DNA from: an uncultured archaeon
Lineage (GTDB): Archaea > Asgardarchaeota > Lokiarchaeia > Sigyniarchaeales > SOKP01
DNA: 64,000 bases
Assembly: GCA_964493715.1 (NCBI GenBank)
Contig: CAZBPC010000002.1
Span: forward strand, 1 to 64,000
Direction: 5' to 3'
Shown here: positions 9,109-62,159 of the stretch, in pieces
Numbering within the stretch: position 1 is the stretch's first letter
Layout: every line of letters starts with the position of its first letter
Notes under the pieces: generated by a model
What the model was told of the DNA's origin: nothing
What the model saw: only the letters and a program-made list of their open reading frames with translations
Database searches by the model: none
Translations under genes and position numbers: made by a program

Positions 9109-9894
9109 ATGGTTCTAAAAATGACAGAATACGATAATAATGATCCTTCAAAAAGGAAACACATTAGAATTGCTTTAATTTTAGCTCTTACATGTGCTAC
9201 GTTGATATTTTTAAATTTTGTGGTCATTTCAATTATTTTTGATTGGGCCGATTGGGTAGCCATATTAGTTTTTAGCATAATCTTCATCGTACCAGCATAT
9301 ATATCAAATGCGGGCATGGTAATGGTCGGAGGTGGCAAACCAATAGATGGTGGAAAGTTCTGTAAAGACGGAAGAAGAATCTTAGGCGACCATAAAACAG
9401 TCAATGGTCTAATAAAGGGACCACTATATGTTGGAATTCCCATTTCTTTAGGAATACATCTTTTATTTTTTATTTTATGGCCTCTGATTCAACTTATTCC
9501 CATCCAAGCCGCTTCTCAAGGGTTTTTTGTTTTATATGCTGATCTTAGATTGTATGAATTTTACTTTATTGGTGGACCTTTCCCCATCGGAATTCTCATA
9601 TTAGTCCTTAGGATTATTCTCTGTTCATATGGCGCTGTTTTAGGGGATCTTGCAGGTTCTTTTTTAAAGCGACGCCTTAATTACGCAAGTGGAGCCCCTT
9701 TCTGGGTTGTAGATCAATTGGATTTTGCTTTAGGAGCAATCCTTCTTGGTTCAATTCCAGCATTGATCTTTCCTGGAATTTATTTAGCTCCTGACTGGAA
9801 CATTATAATATTTTTAATGATAATAACACCTTCTGTCAGCATCATAGCCAACACAATCGCTTATGTTGTCGGATGGAAGGATGTTCCGTGGTAA
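9109..9894 (+). CDS. carS: CDP-archaeol synthase
   Basis: PAYISN, PIDGG...DGRRILGDHKT, GDLAGSFLKRR, DQLDF. Confidence 0.92.
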   Translation: MVLKMTEYDNNDPSKRKHIRIALILALTCATLIFLNFVVISIIFDWADWVAILVFSIIFIVPAYISNAGMVMVGGGKPIDGGKFCKDGRRILGDHKTVNGLIKGPLYVGIPISLGIHLLFFILWPLIQLIPIQAASQGFFVLYADLRLYEFYFIGGPFPIGILILVLRIILCSYGAVLGDLAGSFLKRRLNYASGAPFWVVDQLDFALGAILLGSIPALIFPGIYLAPDWNIIIFLMIITPSVSIIANTIAYVVGWKDVPW

Positions 9895-9895
9895 T

Positions 9896-10408
9896 TTAAA
9901 TTCTTACAACCTCACATTTTATGTTTATTGGAAAACCATCATCATTATTAAAAATAATATAATTTTCAAATAATTTATTTACCGCTTTGATATACTCTCC
10001 TTTACACCCAATGGCAATCCCCCTTTCTACAAAACTTAAAAAACCAATAATTATATCTTTTTTCCCAGAATACACATTTCGATAAACTCTTATGTCATGA
10101 ACGTAAGGATCGGGAAAGAAGTTATACAGGAGTCTTAAAAGTGTTCTTTCATCACGAATAATTAATATCTTTTTATTTTGGATTTGTCGCCTCATGAGAG
10201 GTAAGGAAAGTTTTGCATTAAAATACTCTTGGCTATTTACAAAAAAGAAAACGAAATTACTAATCAAGATGATATTTTTAGGATAAACCTTGCAGCATTG
10301 ATAAAAGTAATGGTGAAGGAGTAATTCTTGGTTAGTATATTTTTTTTTAATATGAAGTCTCTGATTTAATGACGAATCCGTAGAATCTGTAGAATTTATA
10401 TCCAACAT
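9896..10408 (-). CDS. KH-domain protein, NusA-like
   Basis: C-terminal RGIAIGCKGEYIKAVNKL resembles the archaeal NusA KH GxxG motif. Confidence 0.6.
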   Translation of the reverse strand: MLDINSTDSTDSSLNQRLHIKKKYTNQELLLHHYFYQCCKVYPKNIILISNFVFFFVNSQEYFNAKLSLPLMRRQIQNKKILIIRDERTLLRLLYNFFPDPYVHDIRVYRNVYSGKKDIIIGFLSFVERGIAIGCKGEYIKAVNKLFENYIIFNNDDGFPINIKCEVVRI

Positions 10409-10510: not shown

Positions 10511-10963
10511 GTGAATGAAAAGAAAGTGAAAATTCCCGGATTTGAATACATAGATCACACCGCAGATGTTCAAGCTCGTTGCTACGGACGTACTCTCGAA
10601 CAAGCATTTGAACAAACTGCCTATGCAGTTATGAAAACAATCTCACCTAATTTGGAGAAAATCCTCCCAATAGAGAAAAAAGAAATTACAATTAAAGCAG
10701 AAGATAAGCAAGCTTTATTATTTGATTTTTTATCTGAATTTTTATACATCTTTGATGTTGAAGGGTTAATATTTTCCCAAATAATCGTTGAGAAAATTAA
10801 AAAAAGGGGGGATGAATTTACCTTAATCGCGAATGCCAGCGGAGAGAAATTTAATAATTTACGTCATGAAATCGGGATAGAAGTGAAAGCAATCACGTAT
10901 TCATACATGAATATTGAAGAAAAAAGTGATAAAACCATAATCGATATTGTTTTTGATATATGA
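10511..10963 (+). CDS. Archease (RtcB cofactor)
   Basis: FEYIDHTADV, EVKAITY, C-terminal VFDI; convergent with and abutting rtcB. Confidence 0.95.
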   Translation: MNEKKVKIPGFEYIDHTADVQARCYGRTLEQAFEQTAYAVMKTISPNLEKILPIEKKEITIKAEDKQALLFDFLSEFLYIFDVEGLIFSQIIVEKIKKRGDEFTLIANASGEKFNNLRHEIGIEVKAITYSYMNIEEKSDKTIIDIVFDI

Positions 10964-12471
10964 TTATCCCTTAACAACTCCTACTGGCACTAAACGTACG
11001 ATCTTTTCAATAATTCCAAGATCGTGGCTAACTTGAACTACTTGATCAATATCTTTATAAGCTCCTGGAGCTTCTTCAGCAACTACTTCATTCGAAGCAG
11101 CTCTTATCGAAATCCCTTGATTTTTAAGGCTATCTGTCAATTGTCGAATATTAGGAAGGTACTTTCGTTTTGCTTTAGATCTAGACATCACTCGACCTGA
11201 ACCGTGTGCTGTTGAACCAAATGAGAGATCCATAGCTTTTGGTCTTCCAACACAAAGATATGAAGCTGAACCCATGGTACCTGGAATCAACGCTGGTTGT
11301 CCAATACTTTTATAATCCTGTGACAATTCTGGATGACCTGGAGGAAAAGCTCGCGTAGCTCCTTTTCTATGTACATTTAATAAGATCTTTTTACCATCCA
11401 CTTCGTGTTCTTCTATTTTAAGGATATTATGAGCAACGCCATATATCAGCGTGAAATCTAATTCCTCAGCACTCTGTTTAAAATGTGATTGAAATGATTC
11501 TCTTAACCAATGAGTAATTAATTGCCTATTATTAAATCCAAAATTCGCAGCACAAGCCATTTGACTTAGATACATATCTGCTTCTGGTGTATTTGCAGGC
11601 ACACAAGCGAGCTCTCTATCGGGAACCTCAATCTTGTATTTTTTCATGGCTTGTTCTATAGCTCTCAACGAATCAGTACATATTTGATGACCTAAAGCTC
11701 TTGAACCTGTATGAACCATCACTGTGACTTGATTTTCTTGAAGAATTCCTAATTTCTTTGCTATATCTCTATTGAAAATTTTATCTACTTTTTGTATTTC
11801 TAAAAAATGGTTTCCACTTCCTAAAGAACCGAGTTGTTTTATACCTCTTTGCTTTGCTTTCTGTGAAACTAATTCTGCATTTGCATTTTTTAAAAAACCA
11901 TTCTCCTCACAGTGTTTTATATCTTCTTTCAAGGCATAGCCATTATCAAGTGCCCAGTTTAATCCATTATTTAGAACATCATCTAAATCTGAGAAATTTA
12001 TGTTTAATTTTCCTTTTGACCCTAATCCTGAAGGAATATTCTTGAATATTGTGTCTAATAAAGTTGGAATTTTTTTTTGAACATCTTTCATCATTAAATT
12101 CGTTCGTAGTAATCTTACACCACAGTTAATATCGTCTTTGGCATAAAAGCCTATGCTCTTATGTATCCAACGCCGCCAGGCGAAATCATACCATCTGTGG
12201 CATCCGTTCCTGCAACTCCTCCAATACAAAAACCGTATCCTTGATGAGCATCAGATAATGCGATTGCATGTTTTTGAATGCCCGGCAAACAAGCAACATT
12301 ACTTATCTGATCAAGAGTTCTATCTTGTTTAATCTTTTCCATGATATATTCATTGGCGTAAATATGTACTGGGACTTTCATTTCAAATTTTTTAATTGTC
12401 CCCTCAACTCGTGCCATCAAAGTTTGCGGTTCGATCTCATAAATATTTTCAGCAATTTTTTTTACATTCAT
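10964..12471 (-). CDS. rtcB: RNA-splicing ligase RtcB, two exons (12471-12165, 12135-10964); 492 aa after splicing
   Basis: Exon 1 has [13 protein letters not shown]...SPGGVGY; exon 2 has [39 protein letters not shown]; removing 29 nt joins them in frame. Confidence 0.93.
12136..12164 (-). other. 29-nt BHB-type intron in rtcB mRNA
   Basis: CG-TTGG-AT^A-CATAAGAG-catagg-CTTTTATG-CCAA-AG^A-CG: 4-bp helix TTGG/CCAA, two 3-nt bulges, 8-bp intron stem; canonical cuts give GGA TAC GAT ATT AAC TGT. Confidence 0.88.
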
Positions 12472-12641
12472 TATCTTCAATAATTCTACATTTATCAAAA
12501 ATTTAATTGAAAATTGAATAAATTCATTATAAAAACTTATTTATAAGGATGTTTAAATTTTTTGATTATTGAAAAAAAATTAAGATTTTAAGTAATAGCT
12601 TAATTATGGCAAGGATTAATGTACTGTGGTAAAAATCTCTT

Positions 12642-14783
12642 TTAAGTATGAATAAATATTCCAGCAGATAATCCAAAATTATTGGAATCTTCTAAACATA
12701 GATTATAGATTTTCAATGGTTCACACTCGATGATTTCAATACTAATAATTTTATGATTAATCACTTTATGACTTCTGGTCAGATGCCCTGATAATCCTCT
12801 CTGTGAGCCAAAAATTTTGTCACAAAGAGGACAAGGGAAGCAACCAACTTCTCGTACCTTATGGTCTGGGTTTTCAGGACAGTATCTTATATGAGTACTT
12901 AATCCTCCATTTCCCTTGAATAATTCATTACAAAAAGGACATGATATTAATTCATTGTGAACCTCAGCATAGTGTTTTTTTAATTCACTTGCCCCAATTA
13001 TCATTTTTCCACATTTATGACAAACCATCTTTCCATTTTTTGCCTTTTCTGATTGATTCTTCCGTCCTTTTTCACTCCTTACATATGCTTTTGAAGCTTT
13101 TTGAAATTTGTTCTGCAATTCTAACCAATGAGGTGGATGAGTGTTTTTATAATGCTCAATCATTTCCGCTCTGCCATAAACCAATTGACCACATATCTTA
13201 CATATCATTTTGCCTTGTTTTCCTATTTCGGAGGACTTTTTCCGCCCCTTTTCACTTTTATTATATTTTACCAAATACTCTTTACCCCTTTTCCCAGCAG
13301 CCCTCGTCATATCATAAAAGGCTTCTGATTTTATATAATCACTTATATTTTTCGATGCTCTTTTTGAGTGTCTTTTTTGAAATTGCGGATCTCGATGTAA
13401 CTTTCTTATATTCTCTGAAGCCATTTCAGAATAGAAATCTGGATATAATTTATGTGCTCTCCCCCATCCAATTTCCCCTTTTACTGCTCTTTCACTGGCG
13501 AATTTACTATGGATTTCAAAATGCTCTTTAAAAAATGTTCTCCTGATATTAGAGGGATTATTATTATATTTATCGAAATCGATATGATGCCTTATTTTCC
13601 CCATATCTTTTGTATAAACATTATCCCTAATATTGTAATCATCAGCTAAATTATGTATATAATCATACGTTCCTGTTCTCGGATTATAGACAACCAGATA
13701 ATCTTCTAATTTTAATCGCTTATCTTTATAAGATCTGTTAGCTACGGATATATCTTTAGCATAATAAATTTTTAAAGGCATTAATGAATCTTCATTATGC
13801 AAATGAACAACTTCAATTAATTTATTATTCCTGTTTATAAAAGCACAATTATAATCACAATATATTATGGTAGAATCATCCAAGGTAATTTTTATTAATT
13901 TTGATACATCTCTAATTCTTTTTATTTTTTCTATTTTTGAAATAACAATATTAGAGTATCGATCTAATGAAAAACAATACAATTCATTCCCTAAATTACA
14001 TTCTTCCATTAATTTTAAGAGAGTTAAATCACGTCCATCAGCTAGGTGAATTTTACTACTTCCTATTATACCCCCTTTTCTAAAATTCCTCTTTTCCTGT
14101 ATATTATTAATGGTGCTGGACATTTTTGATTGAATTTTGTTAAAATCATAAGTATTTAAATCCCTAAATATCATTGCTTCAAATTTATCAATCAATCCCT
14201 TATTCCATAATTCAGAAACTAATATGAATACTTGTTTTACTAACCATCTTAGGTATATTATGAATCTCTGGCGAAAGATTGGGTACAATTTTACCTTATT
14301 GTGTATTTTTGTTAAATTAGAATAAAAATCTGCCAGGGTTATCTCATTTAATTTATCCAAAAAATCTTCTTCAACATCATTATGTAAAATAGGCATTAGA
14401 GCCCCCGATAATAAATTAAGCAATTTCACATCAAGCTCTACATTATCGAATTTCTTATCTAAAGTTTTTTCAAGATACCTAATATTGAAATAGATCATAC
14501 GGGCAAGAACAAGTGTTAAATTGTCGATGAATCCAATCTGAATATCATGATCTTCGGCAATAATCTCAACAGGGTGTTCAATAGAATTGAGAGTAGTTTC
14601 GGAATTATTTTCTTCTGTATTATCCAAATTAGTGAGATTGATTTTATCCAACTTGCTTCCACAACGCTCGCAAAAATGTATCTTATCCTCATAGCCAGAT
14701 ATTTCTCTTATCTGATTATTTAAAATGCGCCATTCACAATTAGGGCAACTATAATAGTAAAGTCGACTATTGTCTACTACCAT
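12642..14783 (-). CDS. Zn-ribbon protein fused to a C-terminal degenerate intein (Hint) containing an HNH endonuclease and C2H2-type zinc fingers
   Basis: N-terminal CPNC..CERC; intein-like GIIGSSKIHLADGR ... NHKIISIE...NNFGLSAGIFIHT*; HHIDFDKYNNNPSNI HNH; four CxxC-x12-H-x3/4-H/C fingers. Confidence 0.8.
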   Translation of the reverse strand: MVVDNSRLYYYSCPNCEWRILNNQIREISGYEDKIHFCERCGSKLDKINLTNLDNTEENNSETTLNSIEHPVEIIAEDHDIQIGFIDNLTLVLARMIYFNIRYLEKTLDKKFDNVELDVKLLNLLSGALMPILHNDVEEDFLDKLNEITLADFYSNLTKIHNKVKLYPIFRQRFIIYLRWLVKQVFILVSELWNKGLIDKFEAMIFRDLNTYDFNKIQSKMSSTINNIQEKRNFRKGGIIGSSKIHLADGRDLTLLKLMEECNLGNELYCFSLDRYSNIVISKIEKIKRIRDVSKLIKITLDDSTIIYCDYNCAFINRNNKLIEVVHLHNEDSLMPLKIYYAKDISVANRSYKDKRLKLEDYLVVYNPRTGTYDYIHNLADDYNIRDNVYTKDMGKIRHHIDFDKYNNNPSNIRRTFFKEHFEIHSKFASERAVKGEIGWGRAHKLYPDFYSEMASENIRKLHRDPQFQKRHSKRASKNISDYIKSEAFYDMTRAAGKRGKEYLVKYNKSEKGRKKSSEIGKQGKMICKICGQLVYGRAEMIEHYKNTHPPHWLELQNKFQKASKAYVRSEKGRKNQSEKAKNGKMVCHKCGKMIIGASELKKHYAEVHNELISCPFCNELFKGNGGLSTHIRYCPENPDHKVREVGCFPCPLCDKIFGSQRGLSGHLTRSHKVINHKIISIEIIECEPLKIYNLCLEDSNNFGLSAGIFIHT

Positions 14784-59588: not shown

Positions 59589-59695
59589 TGGCGGGCTATG
59601 AGGGAATTTCGCAATCATCCTATTCGGACGAATCTATCGAACCCCCGACCCCCCGGTTAAGAGCCGGATGCGCTACCTAGCTGCGCCAATAGCCC
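59589..59695 (-). tRNA. tRNA-Lys(CTT) with 30-nt intron in the T-loop (59606-59635); CCA genome-encoded
   Basis: GGGCTAT/ATAGCCC-G-CCA acceptor; CCGG-CT-CTT-AA-CCGG; TTCG/CGAA helix with 3-nt bulges restores the TTCGATT loop. Confidence 0.93.
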
Positions 59696-59733
59696 TGATT
59701 TTATATATTTTTTTACTACACCATTAATCAAAA

Positions 59734-59834
59734 CGCAGACGGAGGGATTCGAACCCCCGAGCGCTCACGCGCACCGGTTTACTCGAATATGAAAACACTC
59801 AAGACCGGCGTCTTACCAACTAGGCTACGTCTGC
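59734..59834 (-). tRNA. tRNA-Ser(TGA) with 18-nt canonical 37/38 intron (59780-59797)
   Basis: GCAGACG/CGTCTGC-G acceptor; CCGGT-CT-TGA; long variable arm GCGC-gtga-GCGC; helix CTTG/CGAG. Confidence 0.93.
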
Positions 59835-60094
59835 GTGTTTGAGATAATAAATGGTGTTGATACTTAATCATGAATAATTAAGTTAAATTAGATTATATTC
59901 AATTAAATAAATTTTTTTTTATTTTATCTTCATTTTTTCCTCGAAAAAAATTAAGATGTAATTTCTCTGACCGAATGTGCATTACTTGCACCATTTATAT
60001 CAATAAGGCACAAGACTGAGAGAGATTTACGAATTTCATGAGTAGAACCAAATTTTTCGTAAAATATAAATTTTGTTGTATATTAGAATACTAC

Positions 60095-62078: not shown

Positions 62079-62159
62079 GCAATCGTCGCCTAGTGGTATG
62101 GCGCTGGTCTGCTAAACCGGTGTCCGACGGACTCGTGGGTTCGATCCCCACCGATTGCG
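62079..62159 (+). tRNA. tRNA-Ser(GCT)
   Basis: GCAATCG/CGATTGC-G acceptor; CTGGT-CT-GCT-AA-ACCGG; variable arm GTCC-gac-GGAC. Confidence 0.95.

Follow-up and report, generated by a model that had tools for sequence, protein, structure and literature searches.

A candidate bulge-helix-bulge mini-intron in the gene of the splicing ligase RtcB of an Asgard archaeon

To our knowledge, crenarchaeal cbf5 is essentially the only archaeal protein-coding gene in which a bulge-helix-bulge (BHB) intron is known. Here we describe a 29-nucleotide (nt) insert in rtcB, the gene of the splicing ligase RtcB, on a 64,000-nt stretch of DNA from an uncultured archaeon (positions 1 to 64,000 of contig CAZBPC010000002.1, assembly GCA_964493715.1; hereafter the window). 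On the basis of its sequence context and modelled fold we propose, with a probability of roughly 78%, that the insert is a BHB intron in the rtcB pre-mRNA that would be cut by the splicing endonuclease EndA and joined by RtcB together with archease, such that the synthesis of RtcB would need RtcB made beforehand. As the accessible text of the sources presents it, the intron of the crenarchaeal cbf5 pre-mRNA (PMC2738675; Watanabe 2002, Yoshinari 2006 and Yokobori 2009, referenced in PMC5829648) is short, lies in a protein-coding gene with the BHB at its exon-intron boundaries, occurs in hosts with a hetero-oligomeric EndA, is distributed patchily with gain and loss among relatives, and needs the tRNA-splicing enzymes, and the putative rtcB intron resembles it in each of these respects. 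Unlike the cbf5 intron, it lies in the gene of the pathway's own ligase, which would make expression of that gene self-referential; its lineage is Asgard (Promethearchaeota), as a preliminary description of this DNA had inferred, and not crenarchaeal; it is one of several such inserts in a single genome (rtcB, nadE, and leuS); and its 29 nt stand immediately before a catalytic metal ligand.

Two further systems invite comparison. BHB introns are very abundant in the tRNA genes of Asgard archaea according to the accessible portions of PMC11291895 and of preprint 10.64898/2026.10.13.758758, and the predicted rtcB element shares with archaeal tRNA introns, as described there, two 3-nt bulges, a helix of 4 base pairs (bp), one cut per bulge, and the same enzymes; it is also similar in size, with tRNA introns of 29-30 nt called by aragorn in the source genome. 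Unlike in tRNA introns, the substrate would be an mRNA, with codons forming the exon side of the motif, and the exon-exon helix has only 2 bp, unlike a tRNA anticodon stem. In XBP1/HAC1 splicing by IRE1, an endonuclease and a ligase remove a very short, frame-shifting intron from an mRNA by a non-spliceosomal route, and in the metazoan XBP1 case the joining enzyme is RtcB with archease (both points from the accessible text of PMC4282640 and PMC4687415). We regard this likeness as an analogy of mechanism and not as membership: EndA would act on a BHB instead of IRE1 on twin stem-loops, the proposed scheme has no stress sensor, and the rtcB message encodes a ligase rather than a transcription factor. 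The full-text literature searched, with subscription journals mostly outside it, mentioned neither an intron in rtcB mRNA nor BHB introns in Asgard mRNAs, and a prior description may exist.

In the window, rtcB lies on the minus strand in two frames separated by exactly 29 nt, with the insert placed between GGVGY and DINCG; read on that strand, the junction is ...CCT GGC GGC GTT GGA T / ACATAAGAGCATAGGCTTTTATGCCAAAG / AC GAT ATT AAC TGT GGT..., where an AC/AC repeat allows three equivalent registers for the insert ends, 12136-12164 being one of them. The unspliced frame (open reading frame (ORF) 12151-12498) runs GGA TAC ATA AGA GCA TAG and thus stops four codons past the Tyr codon, and the only product of an unspliced mRNA would be a fragment of 115 amino acids (aa), while the frame of exon 2 reads DINCGVRLL...VVKG from 12133 down to the stop at 10964. 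The Pfam RtcB profile (PF01139) is divided at positions 47/48, with 1-46/47 in exon 1 (E 4.8e-14) and 48-426 in exon 2 (E 4.6e-145); since the two halves abut, no profile position is lost and the insert holds no protein-coding material, and the full-length family profile is matched once the 29 nt are set aside. The alignment of exon 2 with Pyrococcus horikoshii RtcB (PDB 1uc2, E 1.6e-143) begins at the first residue of the exon and spans 1uc2 residues 95-481, and the residues at 1uc2 columns D95, C98, H203, H234, H329, and H404, which we take to be metal and guanosine monophosphate ligands with catalytic roles in the P. horikoshii enzyme, are identical in the window RtcB. The insert directly precedes the residue aligned with Asp95. 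The split itself agrees with the preliminary description, which had the gene divided at GGVGY/DINCG by a 29-nt frame-shifting insert with a TAG, placed this at the DINC metal-ligand motif, and named archease as the adjacent gene; archease abuts rtcB tail to tail (Table 1). A Pfam profile search of the whole genome, scored as 100% complete with 3.85% contamination, gave a single RtcB match.

In a BHB the cut falls after the second base of each bulge, and the threshold for a flanking helix is at least 2 bp on either side. RNAfold, applied to 12121-12180 of the minus strand, predicts two 3-nt bulges (AUA and AGA) flanking the 4-bp helix UUGG/CCAA, which is the core of a BHB, around an intron hairpin that stays robust in longer contexts (pair probability 0.98-1.0 at 60, 160, and 300 nt). 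Placing cuts by rule would remove 12136-12164 and leave GGA UAC GAU AUU, joining RtcB profile positions 47/48, so that the restored GGA UAC GAU frame of the preliminary description stands. One cut per bulge is also what the accessible part of preprint 10.64898/2026.10.13.758758 gives for BHBs. When random 29-mers of the genome's composition were placed at the junction, a minimal BHB, defined by a 4-bp helix with no fewer than 2 outer and 3 inner pairs, arose in the junction-restoring register in 404/1,000,000. The notable point is this coincidence of BHB geometry with a junction defined by homology, rather than the folding energy. Other details had to be amended: the hairpin is present, with a 9-bp stem and 4-nt loop in RNAfold instead of 8 bp and 6 nt, and the term "textbook" is slightly generous for a motif whose outer helix has 2 bp and a low pair probability. 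A longer exon-exon helix around the intron, CCACAG/CUGUGG, was considered and rejected, as two of the genomes with the same insert (G001 and G216, see below) lack it.

Table 1 Coordinates of the predicted elements of the rtcB locus and of related features (window positions unless a locus code is given)
Feature	Position	Strand	Remarks
rtcB exon 1	12165..12471	-	ATG at 12471; M...GMISPGGVG plus first base of the Tyr codon; Pfam RtcB 1-46/47
Outer helix, 3' strand CG, 2 bp	12133..12134	-	pairs with 12171-12172; pair probability 0.02-0.43
Central 4-bp helix, 5' strand UUGG (exon 1)	12167..12170	-	pairs with 12138-12141
5' bulge AUA	12164..12166	-	predicted cut after second base, between 12165 and 12164
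Putative 29-nt BHB mini-intron	12136..12164	-	phase 1; in-frame TAG; ends ambiguous by up to 2 nt
Intron hairpin (predicted)	12142..12163	-	9-bp stem (12155-12163 with 12142-12150), 4-nt loop
Central helix, 3' strand CCAA (intron)	12138..12141	-	pairs with UUGG
3' bulge AGA	12135..12137	-	predicted cut between 12136 and 12135
rtcB exon 2	10964..12135	-	AC + GAT ATT AAC TGT..., to stop; Pfam RtcB 48-426
Archease gene	10511..10963	+	abuts rtcB tail to tail; PF01951, E 1.6e-41, profile 1-136 of 136
g58 rtcB insert loci	L065-L069 and L102		

From this anatomy we infer the following course of events. The transcript would fold with exon UUGG paired to intron CCAA between the two 3-nt bulges and with the 9-bp intron hairpin enclosed; a heteromeric EndA, formed by two paralogues, would cut after the second base of each bulge and leave 2',3'-cyclic phosphate and 5'-OH ends; and RtcB, with the neighbouring archease, would ligate the exons to GGA UAC GAU, restoring a contiguous GGVGYDINCG and the predicted junction peptide ...SPGGVGYDINCGVR. 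New RtcB would then appear only where RtcB protein is already present, inherited at cell division. As the genome has no second rtcB, synthesis of RtcB would depend on pre-existing RtcB, and we consider this self-dependence a sound inference, more likely a by-product than a designed circuit. If the intron is what we propose, the splicing ligase has a self-referential step in its own mRNA, and a cell that lost its RtcB protein would be unable to regain it from its own gene.

The genomes, loci, contigs, families, and genera compared below carry codes beginning with G, L, C, f, and g, respectively, with G000 the source genome of the window. An insert at the identical site is found in 5/152 genomes of the order, all of them species-level genomes: G000, G001 of the same genus, G209 of genus g19, and G216 and G218 of genus g21. 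Metagenome contigs L041 and L042 contain the insert as well, and its presence in seven independent assemblies rules out an assembly error. Within the genus of the window, a pattern search found 2 true carriers among 41 genomes; a match with 3 mismatches in G046 was intergenic and was set aside as chance. The other four carrier genomes have no second rtcB, each containing the split copy only. Exon identity is 88-90% between G000 and G001, 77% between G000 and L041/L042, and 72-73% between G001 and L041/L042. The ratio of nonsynonymous to synonymous substitution rates (dN/dS) for G000-G001 is 0.10 (490 codons, dS 0.42; dS for G000-L041 is 1.33), which lies within the range of intronless pairs (0.04-0.16), so selection on the interrupted rtcB is not relaxed. 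The doubts over an assembly error, a second intact rtcB, and relaxed selection that the preliminary description had attached to its own reading thus fall away. A pseudogene or an assembly or sequencing artefact might be suspected from the broken frame, which annotation pipelines would call as two fragments, but this is barely credible for an insert that recurs across assemblies and is embedded in a contig longer than 64 kb, in a gene that is under purifying selection, has both frames otherwise open, and is the sole rtcB of a genome rich in intron-bearing tRNAs.

The intron copies in the other carriers retain 27-28/29 bases of the window's copy. Variation is confined to six intron columns, of which three belong to the stem, two to the loop (both in G209), and one to a bulge, and every stem substitution preserves pairing (G-U becomes A-U in two sequences, U-A becomes U-G, and C-G becomes U-G). 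The two loop changes in G209 convert the in-frame TAG to TGA, so that a stop is retained, and the middle base of the 3' bulge (G/A/C) is the sole variable intron position among the four copies of genus g1. With the BHB imposed on the alignment, 98.9% of cells pair, compared with 28-47% after sliding the partners by 1-3 columns, and the central UUGG/CCAA pairs are invariant (4/4) and paired in 6/6 distinct sequences. As the exon bases of the BHB are also codons, synonymous sites would be constrained, and GTT GGA TAC is indeed found in 7/7 carriers; among 31 intronless homologues GTTGG occurs in 9/31 and GTTGGATAC in 2/31, counts that come from related sequences and hence form no independent sample. 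The motif around the insertion site is invariant in 31/31 intronless homologues. A homology search with the exon-2 protein gave no spliced form: the best match, P0003 (492 aa, 95% identity), comes from a related gene that lacks the intron, on a 13.6-kb contig, and is uninformative on splicing. Several other matches in this search are 394-396 aa long and could be exon-2-only calls or contig-end fragments.

A number of observations weigh against an intron spliced in this way. The folding energy of the 60-mer is unremarkable by itself (z-score -1.54). The outer helix has only 2 bp, with a pair probability of 0.02-0.43, and loses one pair in G209; the outer pairs of the minimum free energy (MFE) structure are C6-G48/G7-C47, with the canonical C9-G48/G10-C47 form 2.8 kcal/mol above it. 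The central helix falls from a probability of 0.55-0.93 at 60-160 nt to 0.12-0.25 at 300 nt, and in the 160-nt MFE structure the 3' bulge is paired with UUU. Given the short outer helix, the modelled motif would be a relaxed BHB at worst. As to covariation, the alignment of related genomes supplied same-site inserts in four more genomes and two metagenome contigs, much as the preliminary description had hoped, and no two-sided compensatory change; every shuffle equals the observed value, leaving the statistic flat. The extreme conservation of the intron could also stem from recent transfer rather than from constraint. Archaeal translation can start on nascent mRNA, and splicing would therefore compete with ribosomes. 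Finally, the genome has a weak match to the RNA_ligase family (PF09414, 31.2 bits) in a 585-aa frame (G000:C107:978-1466 (-), L121), which could be an ATP-dependent ligase and so offer another route of joining; were EndA to cut and such an enzyme to join the exons after end healing, RtcB would not depend on itself. We hold this to be very unlikely, as ATP-dependent ligases require 3'-OH and 5'-phosphate ends.

The splicing machinery that the proposed intron would need is encoded in the genome. Two genes with EndA domains (PF01974) lie at C5:38084-38308 (E 4.9e-29) and C58:18731-18976 (E 1.9e-18), and aragorn calls introns in 12/27 tRNAs of G000; together these indicate that the machinery is present and in use. 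The accessible text of PMC5829648 and of preprint 10.64898/2026.10.13.758758 describes the Asgard EndA as a broad-specificity (alpha-beta)2 type. Applied to tRNAs, our BHB rule recovered 10/12, a rough check in that its loose 2-bp inner helix lets in chance matches. Only 27 tRNAs were called genome-wide, and many were probably missed because of introns. Within the window, aragorn places an 18-nt intron at the canonical position of tRNA-Thr(UGU) (59733-59835 (-)), which adjoins tRNA-Lys(CUU) (59609-59694 (-)), and tRNA-Ser(GCU) (62079-62159 (+)) is nearby.

Similar inserts are found elsewhere in the same genome. A scan of G000 for pairs of open frames that a BHB geometry would join gave 193 candidates on C1-C52 (L 12-120) and 50 from C52 to the end (L 12-60), most of them adjacent genes bridged by chance; a control on reversed sequence gave 2 matches and was unfair, as long ORFs are missing from reversed DNA. 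Five candidates were chosen by eye, and the two halves of each were submitted to Pfam, which bore out those in nadE and leuS as exact splits. A 30-nt insert in nadE (G000:C39:8748-8777 (+), L111/L120) divides NAD_synthase into 3-143/144-242 at YGD/GGVD and has an in-frame TAA; among 133 genomes of the family, searched at up to 3 mismatches, it is confined to G000. A 30-nt insert in a leuS-like gene (G000:C44:26027-26056 (+), L110/L117) divides tRNA-synt_1g into 4-46/48-135 at YPMGYD/SFGLPAENAA and has a 9-bp stem, a 4-bp outer helix, and an in-frame TAA; it is present with up to 3 differences in 5/133 family genomes (G000, G006, G022, G023, and G276), a patchy distribution of near-identical copies. 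Two other 30-nt candidates, C28:34412-34441 (+) in a VWA/CoxE-like frame and C145:299-328 (-) in a thiolase-like frame, have 9-bp stems and A-first bulges, and Pfam on their halves gave no decision either way. The candidate C38:28074-28097 was rejected, as the Ras domain upstream of it is complete and the domain downstream is another one. An A opens the bulges in the BHBs of rtcB, leuS, nadE, C28, and C145 and in the g58 intron described below. In our reading the rtcB element belongs with these inserts to a group of mini-introns, each about 30 nt long, that occupy strongly conserved motifs of essential genes of the lineage and would be tolerated as the tRNA-splicing machinery removes them and would spread patchily by homologous recombination among related species.

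The look-alike inserts also bear on the idea that the insert stays in the RNA and is dealt with by the ribosome, either through a programmed -1 frameshift or through translational bypassing. The exon-2 frame is open back through the insert (ORF 10964-12229) and the insert contains a stable hairpin, but inspection by eye shows no slippery heptamer before the TAG, and a frameshift would introduce about ten foreign residues into a motif that does not vary among the homologues, between its Tyr and its metal-binding Asp. Bypassing would require a landing codon before GAU that matches the take-off codon (UAC or GGA), and such a codon is missing here as well as in the nadE and leuS inserts. BHB geometry suits all three inserts alike, and we consider reading by the ribosome most improbable.

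How the rtcB intron came to be distributed as it is can be approached from the gene tree (34 rows, intron excluded), where the carriers are not monophyletic: the intronless G022 is sister to G000+G001, and L041+L042 stand on a separate deep branch. These two positions require at least two changes. Between G000 and L041/L042 there is no difference in the 47 nt before the intron and the 5 nt after it, compared with 17-27/30 bases shared in other 30-nt windows, and over the same 47 nt there are 8 differences between G000 and G001, although G001 is overall the closer relative. We infer that the 47-nt stretch is a recombination (co-conversion) tract, and that the intron may move between related species along with flanking exon. 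For five of the inserts the contig (L041, L042, and G000 C44, C28, and C145) ends within 170-300 nt on the downstream side in gene orientation, and rtcB is broken near Pfam position 55-58 in several other metagenome-assembled genomes (MAGs; G009, G035, G065, G083, and G195); both may be assembly breaks from shared or polymorphic tracts.

Across a phylum sample of 398 genomes, 373 had an RtcB match. Thirty genomes with at least two RtcB matches or internal stops, among the matches listed, were examined (G066, G099, G117, G130, and G132, for example, were outside this set), and of these 3 have the same-site intron, 6 a different intron in genus g58, 10 were read as inteins, and 11 are contig breaks or fragments. 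The g58 insert, 29-30 nt at PD/AHQGYG of rtcB, is found in 6/6 genomes of that genus (family f21; G173-G178, one of them closed). Exon CCCG pairs there with CGGG (AGGG in one genome), and the bulges, 5' AC/A, AU/C, or AU/U and 3' AA/G, predict an exact ...LPD/AHQ... junction; from species to species the hairpin inside varies in sequence, with helix and bulges kept. RNAalifold places an 11-bp exon-exon helix around this insert, including one compensatory pair at synonymous sites (U-A in three sequences, C-G in two, and U-G in one). On this sequence evidence the g58 insert appears to be an independent parallel, a second BHB hit on rtcB.

The same catalytic region is also entered by inteins in other Asgard families. 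In ten genomes, from families f13, f14, f26, and f27, rtcB forms a long open frame of 776-1015 aa in which the RtcB parts lie about 1.5 kb apart. In G071 the verified translation (L051:1600-1779, L048:1420-1560) places the intein at DIN/C, which is three codons away from where the window rtcB has its insert, and frame length suggests rtcB inteins of about 1.5 kb in G072, G098, G100, G094, G067, G296, G297, G300, and G092. Like the proposed intron, these are selfish inserts in the same catalytic motif whose host functions only by way of a splicing step; unlike it, they are about 1.5 kb long, in frame, and removed at the protein level by self-catalysis, whereas the 29-nt insert shifts the frame, contains a stop, and would be removed from RNA by host enzymes. 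An intein as the explanation of the window insert is ruled out by its 29 nt, its frame shift, and the TAG inside it.

The preliminary description had gone further and read the intron as feedback that ties the ligase level to the balance of endonuclease and ligase. In its general form this proposal makes the spliced intron an adaptive regulator, in which dependence on RtcB and EndA sets the ligase level or a bistable, protein-inherited on/off state of tRNA-splicing capacity. It is kept alive by the two independent BHB hits on rtcB, at GY/D in family f1 and at PD/AH in every g58 genome, and gains something from conservation of the intron far beyond that of synonymous sites, from the stop kept in G209, and from the adjacent archease. 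Yet the intron is rare in the order and in the genus and is absent from the close relative G022; nadE and leuS, which encode unrelated enzymes, have look-alike inserts in the same genome and make a logic specific to rtcB unneeded; and the leuS intron is equally patchy and near-identical. The inteins at almost the same motif are what would be expected if conserved motifs attract or retain selfish inserts, and a purely positive loop has no obvious homeostatic value. The rarity, the look-alikes, the inteins, and the recombination tract together fit tolerated, spreading selfish inserts better than a regulator; the feedback claim is unsupported, and we judge an adaptive role unlikely, while still favouring a BHB intron that is spliced by EndA and RtcB.

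The inserts at two sites of rtcB and in nadE and leuS suggest that annotation understates how common mini-introns are in Asgard genomes. Genes of this kind are split or discarded by gene callers, so that metabolic inferences and inferences of a "missing essential gene" from Asgard MAGs can be wrong, and heterologous expression of insert-bearing genes is impossible unless the insert is removed. As a tentative extension, which we find conceivable yet rather unlikely, Asgard archaea could harbour an undescribed class of mobile mRNA mini-introns of about 30 nt that colonise essential genes at their best-conserved motifs (twice in rtcB, in nadE, in leuS, and probably in others) and spread between species by recombination, with the autocatalytic loop at rtcB producing a protein-inherited, potentially bistable tRNA-splicing state and standing as an archaeal forerunner of RtcB-dependent splicing of the XBP1 type.

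The surroundings of rtcB in the window include a 713-aa ORF directly upstream (12642-14783 (-)) with zinc-ribbon-like CxxC pairs and C2H2 fingers, zinc fingers being all that Pfam reported for it; inspection by eye shows Hint/intein-like blocks at the protein end (...NFGLSAGIFIHT, followed by the stop) with the usual Cys and Asn missing. Near archease lie a 170-aa ORF (9896-10408 (-)) for which Pfam gave no match and a gene for a CDP-archaeol synthase (CarS-like, PF01864) at 9109-9894 (+).

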